Shown one piece after another: positions 10,034-60,722 of a DNA stretch of 64,000 nt. A model generated the notes under the pieces. The model did no database searches and had not been told where the DNA came from. It saw only the letters and a program-made list of their open reading frames with translations. How positions within the stretch are numbered: position 1 is the first letter of the stretch; the number at the start of each line of letters is the position of its first letter. The translations under genes were made by a program, and so were the position numbers. This DNA is from Candidatus Aquidulcis sp. GTDB taxonomy: Bacteria > Chloroflexota > Anaerolineae > UBA4142. The stretch is from positions 12,972-76,971 of the forward strand of contig DYJA01000003.1 of assembly GCA_020723345.1 (NCBI GenBank), given 5' to 3'.

Positions 10034-10035
10034 AT

Positions 10036-10099
10036 CAGTCAACAGTGAACAGTGAACAGTAAACGGTCTACTGTTCACTGTTCACTGATCACTGTTCAC
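10036..10099. repeat. Heptamer-repeat hairpin (CAGTGAA)n / (TTCACTG)n
   Basis: CAGTCAACAGTGAACAGTGAACAGTAAAC ggtc TACTGTTCACTGTTCACTGATCACTGTTCACTG. Confidence 0.85.
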
Positions 10100-10109
10100 T
10101 GGAGTAACT

Positions 10110-11183
10110 ATGGCATTCCTCGAACTCACCAACATCAGTAAAGTATTTGGGCAAACCCCGGCAGTGCAGGATTTCAACTTGCAGGTCGAAAAGGGAGAAT
10201 TCGTTTCGTTCCTGGGACCCAGCGGCTGCGGCAAGACGACGACGCTGCGCATGATCGCGGGGTTTGAACTGCCGACGACGGGCACCGTCGTCGTCAACGG
10301 AAACGACGTGACGAACAAGCCGCCGCAAAAGCGCAACACCGGAATGGTGTTTCAGGCGTACGCGCTTTTTCCCAACATGAACGTCGCGGAGAATATCGGC
10401 TTTGGCTTGAAGATCGCGCGCAAACCCAAAGACGAAATCAAAAAACGCGTGGAAGAAGTGCTGGCGATCATCAAGATGGAAAGTTTCGGCAATCGCTATC
10501 CGTATCAGTTGTCCGGCGGTCAGCAGCAGCGCGTCGCGCTCGCGCGCGCGCTCGCGATTCAGCCGCAAGTGCTGCTGCTCGACGAGCCGCTCTCCGCGCT
10601 CGACGCAAAAATCCGCGTGTCGCTCCGCCAGGAAATCCGCGCGATCCAGCAAAAACTCGGCATCACCACAGTTTACGTGACACACGACCAGGAAGAAGCG
10701 CTGTCGCTGTCCGATCGCGTGGTCGTGATGAACAACAGCAAGATCGAACAGGTCGGCACGCCGTTCGAGATTTACAATTTCCCAAAGACCGAATTCACCG
10801 CGCAATTCGTCGGCACGCTCAATTCGATCCCGGCGACGGTGCGCCACGCCGCGAACGGCGAACTCACGGTGGACAGTCAAACACTTGTCACCGCGCAAAA
10901 GTTGGCAGGCATCGCGGACGGCGAAGCCGTCATGATCTCGATTCGCCCCGAACGAATAAGTTTTGCTTCCGAAGGTCGCAAGCCGAACGTGCTGAACATC
11001 AAAGTCGAGAACATCACGTTCCTGGGTTCGATCGTGCGGGTGCAGGTGCGCGCAGGCGAACACCTTTTCTTGATGGACACGTTCAACAACCCCTTCCTCA
11101 AACTGCCGGAGGTTGGCGATAAAGTTGAGATCACTTTCTCGAAGGAGGCGGTGTTGGTGTTGCGGCATGCCAGCCAAATTTGA
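10110..11183 (+). CDS. ABC transporter ATP-binding protein (PotA/CysA-like)
   Basis: Walker A 'GPSGCGKTT', signature 'LSGGQQQRVALARAL', Walker B 'LLLDEPLSALD'. Confidence 0.95.
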   Translation: MAFLELTNISKVFGQTPAVQDFNLQVEKGEFVSFLGPSGCGKTTTLRMIAGFELPTTGTVVVNGNDVTNKPPQKRNTGMVFQAYALFPNMNVAENIGFGLKIARKPKDEIKKRVEEVLAIIKMESFGNRYPYQLSGGQQQRVALARALAIQPQVLLLDEPLSALDAKIRVSLRQEIRAIQQKLGITTVYVTHDQEEALSLSDRVVVMNNSKIEQVGTPFEIYNFPKTEFTAQFVGTLNSIPATVRHAANGELTVDSQTLVTAQKLAGIADGEAVMISIRPERISFASEGRKPNVLNIKVENITFLGSIVRVQVRAGEHLFLMDTFNNPFLKLPEVGDKVEITFSKEAVLVLRHASQI

Positions 11184-11207: not shown

Positions 11208-11358
11208 GAGGGCAGAATGTTAACCGAGAGGTTCGCCTTCAAGTATCATTTTACGAGCGGGGTGGATCGCTAGAGCGATTCGCCGATTTTGGCGTACCCG
11301 ATTCACCCCCAAGAGACAAGTCCAAATGCGGCTTGTCTTTTTTGTTTCTGAGAAGAAG

Positions 11359-12762
11359 ATGGTTGAGATCATTACTGGCATCCGAGCCGGACGCGCAAAA
11401 ATCCTGCAGCGGCGTGGGCGGCTGACCGAAACCGTTCCGCCTACGCTCGCCGACCGATTGCAGAAAACTTTTGGCGAGCCGCTGACGCCCGAGCAAGCCG
11501 TTGCGCGCATCATCGCCGACGTGCGCGCGCGCGGCGACGCGGCGCTGCGCGACTGGACGCGCCAACTCGACGGGGTCGCCCTCTCGTCGATCGCGGTGAC
11601 GCCGGACGAAATGGACGCGGCGTACGCGGAAACGCCGAGCGCGGTGCGCGACGCGCTCGCGCGCGCGGCGGCACGCATTCGCGCGTTTCACGAAAAGCAG
11701 AAACCAAAATCGTGGTTGTCAGGTAGGGGCGAAACATTCGCGCGAGTGCGTTCGCAATTCAACGAAGATGTGCGTTTCATGGAAGATAGAAATGCGGAAG
11801 ATGACTTGAATGCTTCGCCCCTACTGGGGCAACGCATCATTCCGCTCGCGCGCGTCGGCGTGTACGTGCCGGGCGGTACCGCGCCCCTGCCCTCGTCGCT
11901 GCTCATGTCTGCGATTCCCGCGCAGGTCGCGGGCGTGCGTGAGATCGTCGTCGCGACGCCGCCCACGATCGCGCCTGCGATTCTCGCGGCGGCAAAAATC
12001 GTAGGAGTCACGCGCGTCTATGCGCTGGGCGGCGCGCAGAGCATCGCCGCGCTCGCGTTCGGCGCGGAATCCGTCGCGCGCGTCGACAAGATCGTCGGCG
12101 CGGGCGGCTTGTTCACGACGATAGCGAAGCGGCAAGTGTTTGGCGCGGTCGGCATTGACGGCTTGTACGGTCCAACGGAAACGCTGCTGATCGCGGACGA
12201 TTCCGCGCATCCCGCGTGGTGCGCCGCGGATCTGCTCGCGCAAGCGGAGCACGACATACTCGCGACGAGCATTCTGGTTACCACTTCCCGGTTACTCGCT
12301 GATCAAGTCGCTCAAAATCTCGAATCTCAAATCTCCAATCTCTCCCGACGCGCAATCATCGCGCAATCTCTCGCCAGCCAGGGCGCGATCATCATCGTCG
12401 AAAATTTGGACGAGGCGATGGAGTTGGGCAACGCATTCGCGCCGGAGCACCTATGCCTGCTCGTGCGCGAACCCTGGAACTGGGTGGGCAAAGTAGAGAA
12501 CGCGGGCGGCGTGTTCGTGGGCGAGTGGACGAACGAAGCGCTCGGCGATTACGTGATCGGTCCGAGCCACGTGATGCCGACGGCGGGCACCGCGCGCTTT
12601 TCGTCGCCATTGAACGTGAACGATTTTGTGAAAATCACGAGCGTGTTCAGCGTGAGCGCGCGTGAGGCGCGTCAACTCGGCGAAACCGCGGCGACGCTCG
12701 CGGAAGCAGAGGGGCTGACCGCGCACGCGAACGCGATCAGACAACGAATGAGGAACGAATAG
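11359..12762 (+). CDS. hisD: Histidinol dehydrogenase carrying two in-frame repeat insertions
   Basis: 'VGVYVPGGTAPLPSSLLM', 'LAQAEHD' and 'APEHL' motifs. See findings for the 102-bp TIR element (11723-11824) and the (AATCTCN)4 tract (12316-12343). Confidence 0.9.
   Translation: MVEIITGIRAGRAKILQRRGRLTETVPPTLADRLQKTFGEPLTPEQAVARIIADVRARGDAALRDWTRQLDGVALSSIAVTPDEMDAAYAETPSAVRDALARAAARIRAFHEKQKPKSWLSGRGETFARVRSQFNEDVRFMEDRNAEDDLNASPLLGQRIIPLARVGVYVPGGTAPLPSSLLMSAIPAQVAGVREIVVATPPTIAPAILAAAKIVGVTRVYALGGAQSIAALAFGAESVARVDKIVGAGGLFTTIAKRQVFGAVGIDGLYGPTETLLIADDSAHPAWCAADLLAQAEHDILATSILVTTSRLLADQVAQNLESQISNLSRRAIIAQSLASQGAIIIVENLDEAMELGNAFAPEHLCLLVREPWNWVGKVENAGGVFVGEWTNEALGDYVIGPSHVMPTAGTARFSSPLNVNDFVKITSVFSVSAREARQLGETAATLAEAEGLTAHANAIRQRMRNE
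11723..11824. mobile_element. 102-bp miniature element with 17-bp terminal inverted repeats, in frame inside hisD
   Basis: GTAGGGGCGAAACATTC at 11723-11739 and GAATGCTTCGCCCCTAC at 11808-11824 are reverse complements (16/17). Length is 34 codons. Confidence 0.7.
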
Positions 12763-12990
12763 ACGAATGGCACGCGGGCAGGATGAGTCAACAACGGAGG
12801 AGCATCCAAGATGAAACAGCCACTTTCCATCGGGATCAGTTGAGACAATTCGACATCCGCTGATCGTCGCGTATTTGAAAGCGGCTCTGGCGCAGGAGCG
12901 CACGCGTAGCTAATCGAGAAGAAAAGCAATCCGGCTAGAGGTGGCCGGCGGCATAGCCAAAGTAGGCACATTCCTTGAAGGAGGGACTTG

Positions 12991-14064
12991 ATGAACGGTT
13001 TCGATGCCAGCACTTTGTTGCGGCAGGACTTGCTCAACTTTCCGCCGTACCGAATGGCGGCGGTGAAAATCGCGGACATGGATCGCGTGATCAAACTGGA
13101 CGCGAACGAGAATGCGTTTGGACCATCGCCGAAGGCGCTTGCGGGGCTTGCGGCGATGCGTCACTGGAATCGCTACGCGACCCAGGATGAACTGCGTCCC
13201 GCGATTGCGAGTTACGTCGGAGTCGATCCGGCGCACATCGTCGTCGGCAACGGCGGCGATGAACTGCTCGATCTGTTGGAGCGCGCATTTTTGAATCGCG
13301 GCGACGCGATCGTCGACCTGCCGCCTTCGTTTGAGATGTACGCCAAGTACGCGGAGGTGAATGGTGGGCGCGTGATTGCGGTGCCGCGCCGCGCCGATTT
13401 CTCGATTGACGTGGACACGCTCAAGCGCGTGGTGGCGCAAGACAAGCCCAAGATCATCTTCGTCGCGAACCCGAACAACCCAACGGGGACGCTCTTGTCG
13501 CGCGAGGAAATCGAACGCGTCCTCGCGCTGCCCGCGCTCGTCGTGCTGGACGAAGCGTACGCGGAGTTTGCGGGTGAAAGTTACGTCGACCGCGTGCCGA
13601 CCCAGCCCAATCTGTTCGTTCTGCGCTCGTTCAGCAAGTGGGCAAGTTTGGCAGGTTTGCGGATTGGCTACGGCGTCGCGCCAGTACGCATCGCGGACCA
13701 GCTTTTCCGAAACAAGTCGCCGTACAACGTGAACGCCGCGGCGATCGTCGCCGCGCAGGCGTCCTTGGAGGACAAGGAGTATTTGCTCGCCAACGTGCGC
13801 CGGGTCGTCGCCGAGCGCGAACGATTGACGGACGCGCTGACGCGCCTCGGCTATTTGCAGCCCTTCCCCAGTCGCACGAATTTCATTCTCTGCCGCGTGA
13901 AGCGATGCGATGCGCGCGGGCTGCGCGACGCATTGGCGGAACGGAACATCTTGATTCGCGCCGTTACGAATCCGCAGTTGCGCGACTGCATTCGCATCAG
14001 CGTCGGGACGCCGGAACAAAACGCGACGCTGCTGCGCGCGTTGGAAGAACTCACGCCCGCGTGA
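12991..14064 (+). CDS. hisC: Histidinol-phosphate aminotransferase (copy 1)
   Basis: 'LDANENAFGPSP', 'NPNNPTG' and PLP-lysine 'SFSKWASLAGLRIGY'. RBS GAAGGAGGG. Confidence 0.9.
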   Translation: MNGFDASTLLRQDLLNFPPYRMAAVKIADMDRVIKLDANENAFGPSPKALAGLAAMRHWNRYATQDELRPAIASYVGVDPAHIVVGNGGDELLDLLERAFLNRGDAIVDLPPSFEMYAKYAEVNGGRVIAVPRRADFSIDVDTLKRVVAQDKPKIIFVANPNNPTGTLLSREEIERVLALPALVVLDEAYAEFAGESYVDRVPTQPNLFVLRSFSKWASLAGLRIGYGVAPVRIADQLFRNKSPYNVNAAAIVAAQASLEDKEYLLANVRRVVAERERLTDALTRLGYLQPFPSRTNFILCRVKRCDARGLRDALAERNILIRAVTNPQLRDCIRISVGTPEQNATLLRALEELTPA

Positions 14065-14087
14065 GTCCATCCCAGCCAAGGATAAAT

Positions 14088-15212
14088 ATGTCGAATTTTG
14101 ATGCCACCAAATTGCTCCGCGAAGACCTGAACGATTTTCCGCCGTACTCGATGGGACACGTGCCGCTCGCGGAGTTGGACTCGCTCGTCAAGTTGGACTT
14201 GAACGAAAACACGTACGGACCGTCGCCCAAGGCGCTCGCCGCCGTCGCGCAGATGCGGCACTATCACCGCTACGTCGGACAGCAGGAATTGCGCGAGGCG
14301 ATCGCGCGCTATGTCGGCGTGGGGGTGGAACACATCGTCACCAGCAACGGCGCGGACGAGATGATCGATCTGGTGCAGCGCATGTTCCTCAATCACGGCG
14401 ACGCGATTGTGGACTGCCCTCCGTCATTCGAAATGTACGCGTTCTTCGCGCGCGTGAACGGCGCGCGGATCGTCCGTGTTCCACGGCGAGAGGATTTTTC
14501 CGTCGACGTGGATGCGGTAGAAAAAGCGATTTCAGATTTCAGATTTCAGATTTCAGATTCTGCAAACCCGACTGCGGAATCTCTCATCTCCAAGCTCCAA
14601 TCTCCAAAGTTGGTATTCCTCGCCAACCCCAACAACCCCGACGGCATGATGATCCCGCCTGCCGATGTGGAACGACTGCTCGCGCTGCCGGCGCTCCTCG
14701 TACTCGACGAGGCGTACGCGGAATTTGCTGGGCAGAGTTACGCCGCGCGCGTGCCGACCCAATCGAATTTGATCGTGCTCCGAACGTTCAGCAAGTGGGC
14801 GGGGCTGGCGAGTCTGCGGGTCGGCTACTGCATCGCGCCGCAGGCGATCGCGGCGAAAATTCTCCAATGCAAAGCGCCGGAGAATGTGAACGCGGCGGGA
14901 AACGTAGCGGCGCGCGCGTCGCTCGACGACCTTGAATATCTGCACGCGAATGTGCGCCGCATTGTCGCGGAACGCGAACGCCTGGCGGGAGAATTCGGGA
15001 AACTCGGCTTTCTCCAGCCCCTGCCCAGCCGCGCGAATTTTCTCTTCTGCCGCGTGCTCGGGCGCGACGCCAGGCAAATCCACGATGCGCTCGCCGGGCA
15101 CGGCATTTTGATCCGCGCATTCGGCGCGCCGCGCTTGCGCGAGTACATTCGCATTGCCATCGGAACGCCGGAGGAAAATGAGACCGTGTTGAAGGCGCTG
15201 AGGGAAATGTGA
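14088..15212 (+). CDS. hisC: Histidinol-phosphate aminotransferase paralog (copy 2) with an in-frame heptamer insertion
   Basis: Same motifs ('LDLNENTYGPSP', 'NPNNPDG', 'TFSKWAGLASLRVGY'). (GATTTCA)4 and AATCTCC-type heptamers at 14528-14612 encode 'SDFRFQISDS...SLISKLQSPK'. Confidence 0.85.
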   Translation: MSNFDATKLLREDLNDFPPYSMGHVPLAELDSLVKLDLNENTYGPSPKALAAVAQMRHYHRYVGQQELREAIARYVGVGVEHIVTSNGADEMIDLVQRMFLNHGDAIVDCPPSFEMYAFFARVNGARIVRVPRREDFSVDVDAVEKAISDFRFQISDSANPTAESLISKLQSPKLVFLANPNNPDGMMIPPADVERLLALPALLVLDEAYAEFAGQSYAARVPTQSNLIVLRTFSKWAGLASLRVGYCIAPQAIAAKILQCKAPENVNAAGNVAARASLDDLEYLHANVRRIVAERERLAGEFGKLGFLQPLPSRANFLFCRVLGRDARQIHDALAGHGILIRAFGAPRLREYIRIAIGTPEENETVLKALREM

Positions 15213-29225: not shown

Positions 29226-29296
29226 GCCACAGAGAACACAGAGAGCACAGAGAAGAAGTTGTTGTTTTCTCTGTGTCCCCTGTGTCCTCTGTGGCA
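29226..29296. repeat. Heptamer-repeat hairpin (CACAGAG family) upstream of hacB
   Basis: CCACAGAGAACACAGAGAGCACAGAGAAG...TTCTCTGTGTCCCCTGTGTCCTCTGTGG. Confidence 0.8.
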
Positions 29297-29302
29297 AAAA
29301 AT

Positions 29303-29842
29303 ATGGAGCGTTTGATGAAATTCAAAGGGCGGGTTTGGAAATACGGCGACGACGTGAACACCGATGTGATTTTTCCCGGCAAGTACACGTACACGATTAC
29401 GGATCCGAAAGAGCAGGCGCAGCACGCGCTCGAAGATTTGGATCCGAATTTCGTGAGCCAAGTTCAGCCGGGCGACATCATCGTCGGCGGTAAAAATTGG
29501 GGCAACGGTTCTTCGCGCGAGCAAGCGGCGACGTGTCTGAAATATTCCGGCGTCACCGCGCTCATCGCGAAATCGTTCGCGCGCATTCACTTTCGCAACC
29601 TGGTGAACAATGGACTCGCGCCGATTGTCTGCGCGCCTGCGGTCGACGCGATCCAAAATGGCGAGACCGTCGAGATCGATCTCGACGCGCACACGATTCG
29701 CTGCGCCGCCGGCGCGTTCGATTTTCCGCCGCTCTCGCCGACGCTGTTTACGATCATCGAAACCGGCGGCTTGATTCCGATGCTGCGGCGCAAACTCGGC
29801 ACGGAACATCTGCCGATGCCGGAGATTAAGGGAGGAGAGTAG
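29303..29842 (+). CDS. hacB: Homoaconitase / 3-isopropylmalate dehydratase small subunit
   Basis: '[14 protein letters not shown]', '[14 protein letters not shown]', '[17 protein letters not shown]'. The start could also be 29315. Confidence 0.85.
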
Positions 29843-29899
29843 AGATTGGAGATTAGAGATTGCCGGTATCCAATCTCTAATCTCTAATCTCCAATCACT
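29840..29899. repeat. Heptamer-repeat hairpin (GATTRGA / TCYAATC)
   Basis: AGAGATTGGAGATTAGAGATTG ccggta TCCAATCTCTAATCTCTAATCTCCAATC. Confidence 0.85.
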
Positions 29900-31012
29900 A
29901 TGTACAAAATCGCTTGGCTGCCCGGCGACGGGATTGGAAAAGATGTAATGGACGCGGCGCGCGTGGTGCTCGACGCGTTGAAACTGGACGCGCAGTACAC
30001 GCCCGCCGACATCGGTTGGGAGTTCTGGTGTAACGAAGGGGACGCGCTGCCGCAGCGCACGATTGACACTTTGCGCGCGTCGCATTGCGCGTTCTTTGGC
30101 GCGATCACGTCCAAGCCGAAAGAAGAAGCGGACGCGGAACTCGCGCCGAACTTGCGCGGCAAGGGTTTTGTCTATCGCAGTCCGATTGTGCGTTTGCGCC
30201 AGATATTCGATCTGTACGTGAACTTACGCCCGTGCAAAGCGTATCGTGGCAATCCGCTGAATTATCGCGACGACATCAACCTCGTCGTCTTTCGCGAAAA
30301 CACGGAAGGGCTGTACGCCGGAGTCGAATTTCATCCGGTCCCGGACAACGTGCGCCGCGCGCTCGAAGAATCGTCCGGCGCGATGCGCGCGTTCAAAGAG
30401 ATCGCGTCGGACGATATGGCGATCACCGCGCGCGTCATCACGCGGCGCGGCGCGGAACGGATCGTCCGCCGCGCGTTCGAGTACGCGCAAAAACACAATT
30501 TCCCGACGGTGACGCTCGTCGAAAAGCCGAACGTGCTGCGCGAGACGAGCGGGTTGATGACGCGCGTCGCGCGCAAGGTCGCGCGCGATTTTCCCAAAAT
30601 CGAATTGTGGGAAGCGAACATCGACGCGATGATGATGTGGCTGCTGAAAAATCCGCAGCAGTACGGCGTGCTCGTGACGAGCAATCTCTTCGGCGATGTC
30701 GTCTCCGATTTGTGCGCGCAACTTGTCGGCGGGCTGGGTTTCGCGGCAAGCGGCAACATCGGCGACCAGTTCGCGGTCTTCGAACCGACGCACGGCTCCG
30801 CGCCCAAGTACGCCGGACAAAACAAGGTCAATCCAATCGCAACATTCTTCGCGGCAAAGTTGATGTTGGATTGGCTCGGCGAAACGGAAAGAGCGACGCG
30901 CCTCGAAAACGCGATTGCGACGGTGATCGCGGAAGGACGCGTGCGGACGTACGATATGGGCGGCAAAAGTACGACGATGGAAATGGCGGAAGCAGTCGCA
31001 GGCAAATTATGA
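29900..31012 (+). CDS. Homoisocitrate / isopropylmalate dehydrogenase family protein
   Basis: 'IAWLPGDGIGKDV', 'NLRPCKAY', 'VVFRENTEGLYAG', 'SNLFGDVVSDL', 'FEPTHGSAPKYAG'. Confidence 0.9.
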   Translation: MYKIAWLPGDGIGKDVMDAARVVLDALKLDAQYTPADIGWEFWCNEGDALPQRTIDTLRASHCAFFGAITSKPKEEADAELAPNLRGKGFVYRSPIVRLRQIFDLYVNLRPCKAYRGNPLNYRDDINLVVFRENTEGLYAGVEFHPVPDNVRRALEESSGAMRAFKEIASDDMAITARVITRRGAERIVRRAFEYAQKHNFPTVTLVEKPNVLRETSGLMTRVARKVARDFPKIELWEANIDAMMMWLLKNPQQYGVLVTSNLFGDVVSDLCAQLVGGLGFAASGNIGDQFAVFEPTHGSAPKYAGQNKVNPIATFFAAKLMLDWLGETERATRLENAIATVIAEGRVRTYDMGGKSTTMEMAEAVAGKL

Positions 31013-48476: not shown

Positions 48477-48484
48477 ACAAGCTT

Positions 48485-48550
48485 GGACACAGACAAACAC
48501 AGATGCACACAGATAAAAAAATCAGTGAAAATCTGTGTGCATCTGTGTCC
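48485..48550. repeat. Dispersed GGACACAGAT-type hairpin repeat, copy 3 of 3 (between convergent genes)
   Basis: GGACACAGACAAACACAGATGCACACAGAT aaaaaaatcagtgaaa ATCTGTGTGCATCTGTGTCC. Confidence 0.8.
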
Positions 48551-48566
48551 AATCCAGTGTGGCTCA

Positions 48567-55899: not shown

Positions 55900-55919
55900 A
55901 ACTCGGACAGCAGATAACA

Positions 55920-55962
55920 GAAATCAGACGACAGAAAAAATCTGTCGTCTGATTTCCGTTTT
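55920..55962 (+). terminator. Rho-independent terminator (possibly bidirectional)
   Basis: GAAATCAGACGACAGA / TCTGTCGTCTGATTTC 16-bp stem, AAAAA loop, CGTTTT tail. Confidence 0.75.
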
Positions 55963-55996
55963 CATGCGCCATGCTTCACGCATCACGCATCACGTT

Positions 55997-57480: not shown

Positions 57481-57600
57481 TTTCCCTCTAGTCAATCAGA
57501 CGATCAGGCAATCAGTAATCAGGCAATTAGGCAGCCAAACAATCGGTCGACCGATTGACCGACTACCGATCGACCGATTGCCCGATTGCCTGATTGACCA
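57481..57600. repeat. Heptamer-repeat hairpin (AATCAGG / GATTGCC / CGATTGA family) overlapping the 3' end of the CCA-enzyme gene
   Basis: TAGTCAATCAGACGATCAGGCAATCAGTAATCAGGCAATTAGGCAG...CGACCGATTGACCGACTACCGATCGACCGATTGCCCGATTGCCTGATTGACC. Confidence 0.8.
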
Positions 57601-60226
57601 ACAGCTCTTCTTCGGCGCGCGTCGAAATTTCGCCGTCCAGCCGCGCGTCGCGCAATCGTTCGAGAATGTGACGATATTGCGGACCGGGGCGGATGCCCAT
57701 GCGTTTGAGATCGTCGCCGGTCAATTCGGGCGCGATACCGCGCACGCGCGTGCGGAACAGCGCGATGCGTTCGCGCGCGCGTTCGTCGTCAGTCGCCAAT
57801 GCAAAGAGCGCGAGCGCGTCGTCGCCATAATCCACGAGCAAACGATAGAGCGCGCTCGGCGCAAGCGCATCGACGCGTAGGCGCGGCTCGACCTCCGCGC
57901 GCAACGCGAGCAATTGCAGGATCGTTTCGATTTCCGCGTTCGGGAGCCGCAAGCGTCGGCAAAATTCAGCCGCAGCCGACGGCGTCAGATGGTACGCCAG
58001 CAAACCCAGGTACGTCACCGCCGTCGGCGTCCTGACCCTTCGACTATCGCTCAGGGGGGCGGCATCCTGAGCGATAGTCGAAGGATTTGCCGCGAAGTCG
58101 AAGGATTCTGCCGCGCGCGCTTGCTGAAACTTGCTCGCGTGCCAATCCGAAAAATCGAGCGGCGCAAAGATCGCTTTGAGCGCGCCGAGTTCGTGCGCGC
58201 GCGCCAACGCCTTTTCCGGCTCGCGCTCACGAAAGATCAGAGTGAACTCGTGGCGAATCCGTTCGCCGCTGACGCGCGTAAACATATCGAGCGCGTCGCC
58301 GATCAGGCGCGCGGTGCGCGGCTCGATCTTGAAACCGAACCGCTGCTCAAAACGCGCGGCGCGCAAAATCCGCGTCGGGTCTTCGATGAAACTCAGGTTG
58401 TGCAGAACGCGGATCAGCCCGCGCTGCAAATCCGCTTCGCCGCCGAACGGATCGAGCAATTGCCCGTACCGCTCCGGATCGAGGCAAATCGCGAGCGTGT
58501 TGATCGTAAAATCGCGGCGATGCAGGTCTTGCTTGATCGAACTCGTTTCGACTTCGGGCAACGCGGAAGGATGCGCGTAAAATTCCGTGCGCGCGGTGGA
58601 GAAATCGAGAGAGGAAAGATGAGAAATGAGAGATGAGAGTTTCCTGTCTTGCGTCTCTCCGCTTTCATCTTTCATCTCTTTCAGCATCCACTTCGCCGTG
58701 CCAAAGCGCGTGTGTCCGTGAACGCGTCCGCCGTATTTTTTTTGCAATGCCTGCGCGAGCGCAATCGCGTCGCCTTCGACGACGAGGTCGAGATCGAGAT
58801 TGGGCTGGTTGAGCAAGAGATCGCGCACAAAACCGCCGACGATGTACAAACTGAATCCCAGGTCGTGCGCGAGCTGGCTCGCATCGCGCAAGAGCGCGAG
58901 CAGTTCCGACGGCAGCCATTTCTCCAGACGCGCCGCCATTTCTTCCGCGCGCGTCGGACGCTGTTTGCCCCACGGTTTGATGAGATCGGTACGCGTGACG
59001 ATGCCGATAATGCGACTGTCTTTGACGACGGGCACCTGCCCCAAATCGCTCTCGATCATCACCGCGCGCAATTTGTCGAGCGAATCGTCCGGCGTGACCG
59101 CCGCCGGCTTTTGCATCAGGTTTTTGATCGGCGCGTTCAAGAGTTTGTGGCGCGCCGCGCGATCAATTTCGCGTCGCGTCACGACGCCGACGAGTTTGCC
59201 GCGCCGCACGACCGGAAAACCTTCGTGCCCGTAGCGATTCATCGCTTCGGCGGCTTGCGCGACCGTCGTCGTCGTCGCCAGCGTGTGCGCGCCGAATGAC
59301 ATGACGTGACGCACGAGCAGCGACGGCTTGATCGACGCGTTGAGCGATTTGATCAATTTCGATTTTGCCTGACGCAGCGTCATACCGCGAATCAGCGCGG
59401 CAGCGGCTTTGTCGTGTCCGCCGCCGCCGAACGCGGCGGCAGTCGCGGCAACGTCAATTTCCGCGCGTTCGGAACGCGCGACCAGTTGGATGTGATCGTC
59501 CATCTGCACGAGGAGAAAGAGCGCGGCGGGATCGTACATTTCGCGCAGTTGGTGCGCCAGCGTCGAAACCTCGTCGACGTAACCGGCGGCGCGCGCGGCG
59601 GCAAGCGCGATCGCGTGCCCGGCAATTTCGACGGTCTCGATTTTTTCGATGAGTTGCTGATACAATTTGTGCTGCGCGGCGGTGAGCGGCGGGTGCAGAA
59701 ATTCGTTGACGATGGCAAGCCGCGCGGCGCGTTCGAGCAGAAACGCGGCGGCGCGCGCGTCGCGCGGCGTCGTCGTGACGTAGGTGAGCGCGCCGGTATC
59801 TTCGTAAATGCCGAGCAATAACAGCGTCGCTTCAATCGGCGTGAGCGGCAATTCCTTGTCGCTGATCTGTTCGACGAAGAGCGTCGTCGTCGCCCCGGCT
59901 TCGCCGCCGGAAAACGTCATGCCGGGTTTGAGATCGCGCGTGAGTGGGTGGTGGTCGATGAAATGCATCCGCGTCTTGGGCGTGACGCCGCGCGCGGATT
60001 GAACACCCTGGCTGTCGACGACGACAATCGCGCGGAAATGTTGGCGCGGCAAATCTTCGGGACGCGCAAAGGGGAGCGCATCGGCGTAGAGCGCGCAAAA
60101 ATCGCGCACGTTGCGATTGAGGCGGCGCGGCAAAATCGGGAGCGCGTCGGGATAGATTTTCTTCGCGCCGAGCAGCGCGGCGAGCGCGTCGAAATCGGCG
60201 TTCTCGTGCGTGAGGATCGCGTCCAT
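57563..60226 (-). CDS. DHH/DHHA1-CBS-poly(A) polymerase/CCA-adding nucleotidyltransferase fusion protein with two in-frame repeat insertions
   Basis: 'HENADFDALAA', 'GGGGHDKAAAA', CBS pair, 'YIVGGFVRDLLL...DLDLVVEG', 'TARTEFY', 'RRDFTINTLA'. Insertions at 58037-58107 and 58600-58683. Confidence 0.9.
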   Translation of the reverse strand: MDAILTHENADFDALAALLGAKKIYPDALPILPRRLNRNVRDFCALYADALPFARPEDLPRQHFRAIVVVDSQGVQSARGVTPKTRMHFIDHHPLTRDLKPGMTFSGGEAGATTTLFVEQISDKELPLTPIEATLLLLGIYEDTGALTYVTTTPRDARAAAFLLERAARLAIVNEFLHPPLTAAQHKLYQQLIEKIETVEIAGHAIALAAARAAGYVDEVSTLAHQLREMYDPAALFLLVQMDDHIQLVARSERAEIDVAATAAAFGGGGHDKAAAALIRGMTLRQAKSKLIKSLNASIKPSLLVRHVMSFGAHTLATTTTVAQAAEAMNRYGHEGFPVVRRGKLVGVVTRREIDRAARHKLLNAPIKNLMQKPAAVTPDDSLDKLRAVMIESDLGQVPVVKDSRIIGIVTRTDLIKPWGKQRPTRAEEMAARLEKWLPSELLALLRDASQLAHDLGFSLYIVGGFVRDLLLNQPNLDLDLVVEGDAIALAQALQKKYGGRVHGHTRFGTAKWMLKEMKDESGETQDRKLSSLISHLSSLDFSTARTEFYAHPSALPEVETSSIKQDLHRRDFTINTLAICLDPERYGQLLDPFGGEADLQRGLIRVLHNLSFIEDPTRILRAARFEQRFGFKIEPRTARLIGDALDMFTRVSGERIRHEFTLIFREREPEKALARAHELGALKAIFAPLDFSDWHASKFQQARAAESFDFAANPSTIAQDAAPLSDSRRVRTPTAVTYLGLLAYHLTPSAAAEFCRRLRLPNAEIETILQLLALRAEVEPRLRVDALAPSALYRLLVDYGDDALALFALATDDERARERIALFRTRVRGIAPELTGDDLKRMGIRPGPQYRHILERLRDARLDGEISTRAEEELLVNQAIGQSVDR

Positions 60227-60465: not shown

Positions 60466-60536
60466 CCCAGTATTCAGTGTCCAGTAAACAGTAATCAGAC
60501 TGAATACTGAACACCGAATACTGAATACTGAACGCA
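60466..60536. repeat. Heptamer-repeat hairpin (CAGTATT family) between tRNA-Arg and tRNA-Ser
   Basis: CCCAGTATTCAGTGTCCAGTAAACAGTAATCAGACTGAATACTGAACACCGAATACTGAATACTGAAC. Confidence 0.8.
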
Positions 60537-60635: not shown

Positions 60636-60722
60636 GAAATTTGGAAATTAGAAATTGGACGTTAGAAGTTGGATGGTTGCGGCGGGTCAAACTTCCAACT
60701 TCTAATTTCCAACTTCCGATTC
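60636..60722. repeat. Heptamer-repeat hairpin (GGAAATT / AAGTTGG family) between the two tRNA-Ser genes
   Basis: GGAAATTTGGAAATTAGAAATTGGACGTTAGAAGTTGGATGG...CAAACTTCCAACTTCTAATTTCCAACTTCCGATTCC. Confidence 0.8.

Follow-up and report, generated by a model that had tools for sequence, protein, structure and literature searches.

A probable relic of a double-foot GTAG REP within the histidinol dehydrogenase gene of an Anaerolineae-like Chloroflexota clade

The Rickettsia palindromic elements (RPEs), palindromic repeats of ~100–150 bp that lie in frame in open reading frames (ORFs) and whose host proteins are likely functional, are the textbook precedent for selfish DNA within protein-coding genes. 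Among the repetitive extragenic palindromes (REPs), those of subclass 2.4 of the TnpA_REP transposases, which corresponds to Group 4 of Bertels, are long and have three G-C pairs at the base of the stem, carry a “double foot” (5′ GT[AG]G and 3′ C[TC]AC), and preserve the frame when they insert into tnpAREP itself and into unrelated genes (Quentin et al. 2018, PMC6006769). The corresponding Group 4 REP-associated tyrosine transposases (RAYTs) occur frequently in Cyanobacteria, Chlorobia, and Caldilineae (Bertels et al. 2017, PMC5581495). A survey of tagged palindromes describes GTAG/CGTC REP palindromes within coding regions that are presumed neutral because of their position in loops or linkers, and it stresses genes for replication and repair (uvr, rec, polymerases) and for tRNA modification (Di Nocera et al. 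2013, PMC3733652). For REP doublets that form hairpins (REPINs), a single-copy RAYT has been proposed to drive mobilisation (Bertels and Rainey 2011, PMC3116915). Here, a 102-bp element within the histidinol dehydrogenase gene (hisD) of Candidatus Aquidulcis sp. (Chloroflexota, Anaerolineae) was analyzed together with the whole 64-kb stretch of contig DYJA01000003.1 in which it lies (the window). The element is very probably a relic double-foot GTAG REP, cognate of the HUH/Y1 RAYTs of subclass 2.4, that is translated within hisD.

The gene, the element and its parts have the following positions in the window:

11359..12762, + strand: hisD (histidinol dehydrogenase) coding sequence, from the ORF, matches to HisD in the Protein Data Bank (PDB; E = 1e-104), PF00815 and the N-termini of homologues
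11723..11824, + strand: inserted element of 102 nt, very probably a decayed double-foot GTAG REP, reading in frame as residues ~133–166 of the 478-aa ORF
11723..11739, + strand: 5′ arm GTAGGGGCGAAACATTC, with the GTAG foot at 11723–11726 and the basal stem GGGCGAA at 11727–11733; encodes (G)RGETF
11740..11807, + strand: interior of the element, 68 nt; encodes ARVRSQFNEDVRFMEDRNAEDDL and holds the invariant or near-invariant F and F-x-E-D of the clade
11808..11824, + strand: 3′ arm GAATGCTTCGCCCCTAC, identical to the family consensus; CTAC foot at 11821–11824; encodes NASPL

The initial annotation of this DNA had described a miniature element with inverted-repeat ends inserted in frame in hisD. 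The complementarity it gave for the two arms (16 out of 17 positions) was confirmed, and the sole mismatch is A11734 opposite C. The same substitution is the only difference between the 5′ arm and the family consensus GTAGGGGCGAAGCATTC, which is intact in two relatives (L094 and L174; loci and proteins are given by our identifiers, L and P). The element ends are GTAG-GGGCGAAGCATTC ... GAATGCTTCGCCC-CTAC. The basal stem GGGCGAA pairs with TTCGCCC (11814–11820), followed by the A/C mismatch and five further pairs, so that the stem starts directly after the foot, is fully paired over at least 7 nt and has three consecutive G-C pairs at its base. A search of the whole window for the arms with up to three mismatches returned only these two sites (shuffled expectation 0.16; two or more arm matches in 1 out of 100 shuffles). 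The RNA fold of the 118-nt region has an energy of −45.8 kcal/mol (z = −4.2, 200 shuffles), and the GC content of the insert is 0.42–0.53 compared with ~0.7–0.78 in the flanking coding sequence. The segment is indeed in frame within hisD, with the translation SG-RGETFARVRSQFNEDVRFMEDRNAEDDLNASPL-LGQRIIPL and the reading ...KPKSWLSGRGETFARVRSQFNEDVRFMEDRNAEDDLNASPLLGQRIIPL... across the insert and its flanks. No target-site duplication is present, as the flanks TTGTCAG / TGGGGCA (...GGTTGTCAG and TGGGGCAAC...) contain no direct repeat.

The hisD element shares with the subclass 2.4 double-foot REPs the GTAG/CTAC feet, the three basal G-C pairs, the long hairpin, the in-frame intragenic location and a host range that includes Chloroflexi and Cyanobacteria. 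Table S1 of the subclass lists GTAGGGGCGAAGCATTGG...CCAATGCTTCGCCC (AcylA01) and GTAGGGGCGAAAAATTTTTCGCCCCTAC (CaerA01) (PMC6006769). The hisD arm is near-identical to these catalogued members (GTAGGGGCGAAGCATT..., GTAGGGGCGAA...). We take the two codes to stand for Anabaena cylindrica and for Caldilinea aerophila (Chloroflexi), respectively. Unlike the catalogued REPs, the hisD copy is old, partly decayed and fixed clade-wide, its interior is not recognisably related, and neither a cognate RAYT nor a sister copy lies within the 64 kb.

Comparison with the other systems places the element at a greater distance. It was the GTAG head of the copies that led the search to the GTAG-tagged REP superfamily (PMC3733652), and neither a biosynthetic enzyme like HisD nor clade-wide vertical retention appears in the parts of Di Nocera's account considered here (PMC3733652). 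REP in its original sense means extragenic, whereas the hisD element is intragenic, an exception documented in the same parts of that account and elsewhere (PMC3733652, PMC6006769). RPEs end in CGTC while the hisD element ends in GTAG/CTAC, and RPEs, as far as these parts of the survey describe them, have no transposase partner, are found in Rickettsia only and have no sequence relationship to the hisD element (PMC3733652). The likeness between the two appears to be functional only, that of an in-frame palindromic insert. Like a REPIN, the hisD element consists of two inverted REP-like ends in one long hairpin, and the RAYT-flanking REP of P. aeruginosa, GTAGGGCGAATAACGC, has a head similar to that of the hisD element (PMC3116915). 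However, classical REPINs are extragenic, belong to RAYT Groups 2 and 3 and occur in Proteobacteria, and each REPIN half forms a small palindrome that is not evident in the intragenic hisD element. The RAYT-flanking REP of Nostoc punctiforme (Bertels and Rainey) has a different sequence and was hence rejected as a member of the same family.

Copies of the element were sought in one genome per species with the pattern GGCGAARCATTC-N(50-80)-GAATGYTTCGCC, which demands perfect 12-nt cores at both ends. A total of 93 loci matched, none of them a hisD locus. The expectation of further copies of the termini thus held for other genomes but not for the remainder of the 64-kb window, where diverged copies were also absent (blastn at a word size of 7, and fuzzy matching of the arms). 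Most copies carry the full terminus GTAGGGGCGAAGCATTC ... GAATGCTTCGCCCCTAC or a close variant, their interiors vary by lineage, and the Chloroflexota copies are mostly ~102–106 nt long, similar to the hisD copy. The hosts are Anaerolineae, Ardenticatenales, Thermoflexales, many Cyanobacteria, three Ca. Brocadia, Rhodothermales and Calditrichaceae; one metagenome-assembled genome (MAG) of the Anaerolineae (Prado095) contains at least 13 loci. None of the 93 other copies has an evident target-site duplication. In the literature, the arm sequence was found verbatim in one unrelated Microcystis study only, there as an inverted repeat.

One frame of the 5′ arm holds the stop codon TAG and the other two read xRGEAF and VGAKHS; the frames of the 3′ arm read NASPL, MLRPY, and ECFAPT. 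If a copy of 105 nt enters in the frame xGT-AGG, its translation is GRGEAF...NASPL from either strand. The arm-encoded peptides recur where copies sit in other long ORFs, and in-frame copies are present in real genes, including a UvrD-type helicase fusion (L025), which fits the pattern in the parts of Di Nocera's survey considered here (PMC3733652), and the gene of an Eco57I/MmeI-type methylase, found in L055 and as orthologues in L049 and L077. The methylase copies occupy the same site in the orthologous genes of three Ca. Brocadia species:

L049, 4781–4889: REP in the Eco57I/MmeI-type methylase gene
L055, 7181–7286: REP in the Eco57I/MmeI-type methylase gene
L077, 1049–1157: REP in the Eco57I/MmeI-type methylase gene

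Across these three copies the arm bases are 34/34 identical, while identity is 60–71% in the interior and 58–88% in the flanking coding sequence. At two of these loci, L049 and L055, a RAYT gene lies ~2.3–2.6 kb from the methylase REP.

The Y1/RAYT family is the sole recurrent protein partner that was found over the 93 loci. In the clustering of neighbouring genes, only ubiquitous families came out (ABC ATPases, WD40 proteins, cysteine desulfurases), with no DDE transposase. A tblastn search with an E. coli RayT query gave weak matches that picked ORFs in L005, L049, L054, L055, and L085, and all five were then confirmed by Pfam (Y1_Tnp, PF01797) and NCBIfam (“REP-associated tyrosine transposase”, NF047646; E values of 1e-18 to 1e-19). 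These matches come in two stretches with an insert between them. The five RAYT genes, from four phyla, contain one to three REP copies each, with an in-frame GEAF...NASPL a few residues beyond the HUH motif:

L005, 4606–5208: RAYT gene with in-frame REP
L054, 458–1156: RAYT gene with in-frame REP
L085, 4547–5383: RAYT gene with in-frame REP
L049, 1409–2173: RAYT gene with in-frame REP
L055, 4099–4869: RAYT gene with in-frame REP

Three of the five genes are themselves matches to the pattern with perfect 12-nt cores, and arms are located inside or adjoining RAYT ORFs in six loci (L005, L049, L053, L054, L055, and L085). Among the 120 best homologues of one RAYT, 62 carry both GEAF and NASP, and most others carry co-varying variants (GEAS with DASP) or the peptide of another reading frame (VGAKHS...). 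Where it can be delimited, the segment in the RAYT homologues begins a few residues past the HUH motif.

The distribution of the insert among HisD proteins was analyzed in the 120 closest proteins, which derive from Chloroflexi/Anaerolineae MAGs where the sources name them and which all contain PF00815 (120/120). The proteins fall into two length classes. A homologous segment is present at the same site in 28 of them (69–84% identical to the window protein), with the consensus SG[KR]GEAFARVRSQLKEDxRFxEDxNAxxDLANASPLLGQR, and the remaining proteins have a short turn (SWLDWNGEGALGQ). The statement in the initial annotation that homologues keep a short loop at this site was correct (a turn of 6–7 residues), and the search for a homologous segment in distant taxa found it confined to one Anaerolineae-like clade and absent from sister sequences and from all solved structures. 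The 34 codons given for the segment are present, but the net gain over insert-free relatives is 28–29 residues, the spacing from FHEKQ to GQRIIPL being 54–55 residues with the insert and 26 without it. All 28 insert-bearing proteins are in frame and differ by whole-codon indels only; the window copy is one codon shorter than those of its relatives (102 and 105 nt, respectively). The insertion in hisD appears to be ancient, vertically inherited and shared by at least 28 orthologues.

At the DNA level, a metagenome scan with an alignment of the insert region gave at least two insert-bearing loci among the matches listed, and the DNA of homologues was then taken protein by protein, yielding 12 insert-bearing genes in addition to the window. 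None of these 13 loci contains a stop codon or frameshift. The arms pair at 14–17 of 18 positions in the window, L094, L174, L175, L176, and L177, and at 7–10 of 18 positions in L178, L180, L181, and L182, all of which retain the insert. The ratio of nonsynonymous to synonymous substitutions (dN/dS, pairwise Nei–Gojobori) is 0.07–0.16 for the rest of the gene and ~0.2–0.9 for the interior of the insert in most computable pairs. Within the interior, variability is highest at third codon positions (0.57 vs. 0.43 and 0.33), and the insert has one invariant residue, F30, and two near-invariant ones, F43 and D46. The peptide appears to be under relaxed but real purifying selection, and because the frame is kept, dN/dS is mostly below one, third positions vary most and residues are conserved, the insert is likely to be translated. 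The initial annotation had offered two outcomes, tolerance of the loop by the enzyme or an RNA-level removal or bypass of the element. The former is supported by the at least 28 in-frame orthologues, the dN/dS values mostly below one and the conserved residues, which together favor an insert that is translated and tolerated in a HisD that would be active with it.

One of the solved structures (9lbv, E = 8e-104) matches the window HisD in two stretches that part exactly at the insert (from query residue 131 to 165 compared with 112 to 119 in the 9lbv chain), consistent with the proposed site, and every solved HisD likewise aligns in two pieces with the break at the insert. The solved structures, when aligned, and the published domain map of MtHDH place the insert site in domain III (MtHDH 139–159), a beta arm exchanged between the two subunits, and the tip of the insert would be solvent-exposed. 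An AlphaFold model of the window HisD, based on a 95-sequence alignment, has a mean predicted local distance difference test (pLDDT) of 87 and a predicted template modelling score (pTM) of 0.86. The model contains a strand (129–133), a helix (135–144) and two further strands (149–153 and 167–169), with block-mean pLDDT values of 74–89 over residues 131–170, and the insert is thus predicted to form an ordered strand–helix–strand excursion. The insert has possibly been co-opted. A fuller scenario, with a folded extension of the swapped arm (domain III) co-opted under purifying selection across the clade and, in lineages that retain the cognate RAYT, active upkeep of the arms at the master sequence despite synonymous drift, as in the Brocadia methylases, is rather unlikely.

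Based on these data, the following origin is proposed. The ancestral element would have been a single-strand hairpin of ~105 nt with the termini GTAG-GGGCGAAGCATTC / GAATGCTTCGCCC-CTAC, one copy of which entered hisD, presumably by transposase-mediated insertion, in an ancestor of an Anaerolineae-like Chloroflexota clade. The entry point would have been the DNA encoding the turn of the beta-hairpin of domain III, the subunit-swapped arm. The gene would have stayed open because the length of the element is a multiple of three and its frame xGT-AGG-GGC-GAA-GCA-TTC ... AAT-GCT-TCG-CCC-CTA-C is free of stop codons. The element would then have been translated (GRGEAF...NASPL) as an excursion of 34–35 residues in place of the 6–7 residue turn and inherited vertically, leaving arms that are near-perfect in close relatives and decayed in distant ones; neither excision nor bypass would be necessary. 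Several results weigh against this origin. No similarity could be detected between the interior of the hisD copy and those of the other copies (best z 3.6, median 0.6), and the hisD copy appears to be tied to the family by its arms and overall length only. No second copy or RAYT gene is present in the 64-kb window or in ~130 kb flanking hisD in relatives. The census required perfect 12-nt cores and is therefore biased toward young or maintained copies. The usual turn (DWNGEG-like, 6–7 residues) is absent from the insert-bearing proteins; with the ancestral turn missing, there was no simple addition of 34–35 codons, and either the insertion was not clean or a deletion came after it.

Four other explanations were considered. 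A hairpin that is still functional besides being translated, either as an mRNA or single-stranded DNA structure that modulates hisD or as a site of binding or cleavage by the REP transposase, would account for the strong RNA fold (z = −4.2) and for a GAA/TTC to GAG/CTC change in L175–L177 that keeps the pairing and is synonymous on both sides. In the four closest sequences, moreover, the arms show a proportion of synonymous differences (pS) of 0.00–0.35 compared with 0.49–0.68 for the gene, and among codons of conserved residues 5/7 are identical in the arms compared with 70/279 elsewhere (Fisher's exact test, p = 0.015). The codon test depends on the set of sequences, however (p = 0.6 for five sequences, 0.16 for three), and the compensatory change is possibly a single event of the kind that template switching between the arms of a palindrome could yield. 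The identical arms of the Brocadia methylase copies, despite their diverged interiors and flanks and with a RAYT nearby in two out of three, also fit a functional hairpin, but these cases came from a search that demanded perfect arms. The insert is kept in the four loci where pairing has dropped to 7–10 of 18 positions (L178, L180, L181, and L182), indicating that the hairpin is not needed for retention. A hairpin with a function of its own is thus improbable, and so, to a similar degree, is maintenance of the arms at the nucleotide level where a transposase persists, which would be a minority addition and not an explanation of the hisD copy.

Removal or bypass at the RNA level, giving a mature HisD without the 34 residues, is unsupported and very improbable. 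The arms would bring the flanks side by side, and precise loss of 11723–11824 keeps the frame (SWLS-V-GQR), but an untranslated segment would have nothing to hold its frame, and 28 diverged orthologues are open. The conserved F/F/D residues, the variable third codon positions and the dN/dS values mostly below one likewise point to constraint on codons, distant relatives retain the insert after the pairing is lost, and the resulting loop would be six residues shorter than that of any insert-free homologue. No Rfam family, intron or ribozyme match was found in the region (at E ≤ 10 there was only noise, none of it overlapping 11723–11824), and intein features are absent, as 34 residues are far too short and there are no Cys/Ser-...-Asn splice junctions. 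The chance is equally slight that the element is a classical MITE (miniature inverted-repeat transposable element), that is, a cut-and-paste deletion derivative of an insertion sequence with a DDE transposase. The 17-nt terminal inverted repeats, the small size and the absence of coding capacity of its own are MITE-like, and the element is miniature and in frame as first described, but in the absence of a target-site duplication “MITE” describes its shape and not its family. The GTAG/CTAC feet on a G-C-based stem correspond to the published definition of double-foot REPs (PMC6006769), and the recurrent partner is a Y1/RAYT protein, with no DDE transposase in the ORF clustering over the 93 loci. 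A lineage-specific insertion of protein sequence that did not stem from a mobile element, its ends being palindromic by coincidence, would agree with an insert that is conserved as protein and predicted to be ordered. Chance is implausible when both ends are 17-mers identical to a dispersed repeat, inverted relative to each other and spaced as is typical of the family, and with 93 loci that have the same ends and the published subclass 2.4 table this origin is effectively refuted, its probability being next to nil. A relic double-foot REP of subclass 2.4 translated within hisD therefore remains by far the most probable identity of the element.

Intragenic in-frame GTAG REPs have already been described, and hisD, the Anaerolineae and the clade-wide retention are additions to these descriptions; the reports are extended to a biosynthetic gene and to long vertical retention, and no new mechanism is involved. 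If the proposed origin is correct, hisD provides a natural example of a selfish hairpin repeat that has turned into permanent protein sequence in an essential enzyme, for which one can see the donor family, the transposase, the insertion site, the frame and ~28 descendants that have decayed to different degrees. It would also explain why GRGEAF...NASPL (or VGAKHS and MLRPY in other frames) recurs across unrelated Chloroflexota, Cyanobacteria and Brocadia proteins, which may help annotation to avoid false “domains” made of REP-encoded peptides. The hisD insert itself can serve as a simple marker for this Anaerolineae clade.

Other inserts were observed at or near the same site. Two HisD proteins (P0040 and P0076) have a different insert of 22–23 residues, starting with AASRG, in the same loop and a third (P0120) has a different insert 16 residues upstream of this loop; the HisD turn appears to be a general hotspot of tolerance. 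Within the hisD insert, three loci have gained further hairpins. In the hisD of P0020 (L183), another 105-nt member of this REP family (10449–10553) sits nested at the 3′ arm of the first copy, with the arms GTAAGGGCGAGGCATTT / AAATGCCTCGCCCCTAC and 26 added residues that again open with GKGEAF. Nested in frame in the hisD REP of L179 (3726–3956) is an unrelated insert of 66 nt whose 17-bp inverted repeats are perfect (CGCAAATCATCACGCAC / GTGCGTGATGATTTGCG), and an unrelated GTCATTGCGAGCGAAGC...CTCGCAATGAC palindrome is nested in frame in that of L095 (1537–1779). The hisD insert is thus a locus that repeatedly gains hairpins.

The longest hisD ORF in the window spans 11326..12762 (478 aa), and the true start is probably the Met at 11359, based on the consensus N-terminus of the homologues. 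There is no second hisD in the 64-kb window. The gene was initially described as the first of its operon, which holds for the window and L174 but not for most relatives, where hisZ and hisG precede hisD. Directly downstream lie two neighbouring hisC-like (histidinol-phosphate aminotransferase) ORFs (12988–14064 and ~14070–15212), apparently a tandem duplication.

A scan of the window for other long GTAG...CTAC palindromes returned, at the threshold used, the hisD element only. An imperfect intergenic palindrome at 2164–2253, between the ORF at 686–2134 and the next gene, has 41-nt arms that are 83% complementary, with GTAG close to one end (2168) and CTAC close to the other (2246); it has no second copy in the window and may be a second, unrelated double-foot REP. 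The commonest tetranucleotide “feet” in the scan were CAGT, AACA and ACAG. A number of further hairpins have arms made of short tandem units (10034–10101, 29226–29295, 29837–29900, 48483–48552, 55913–55963, 57491–57598, 58608–58679, 60468–60530, and 60638–60721), for example CAGTGAA repeats opposite TTCACTG repeats, and the first of these lies between two ORFs. We take these hairpins to resemble the heptamer short tandemly repeated repetitive (STRR) sequences of heterocystous cyanobacteria.

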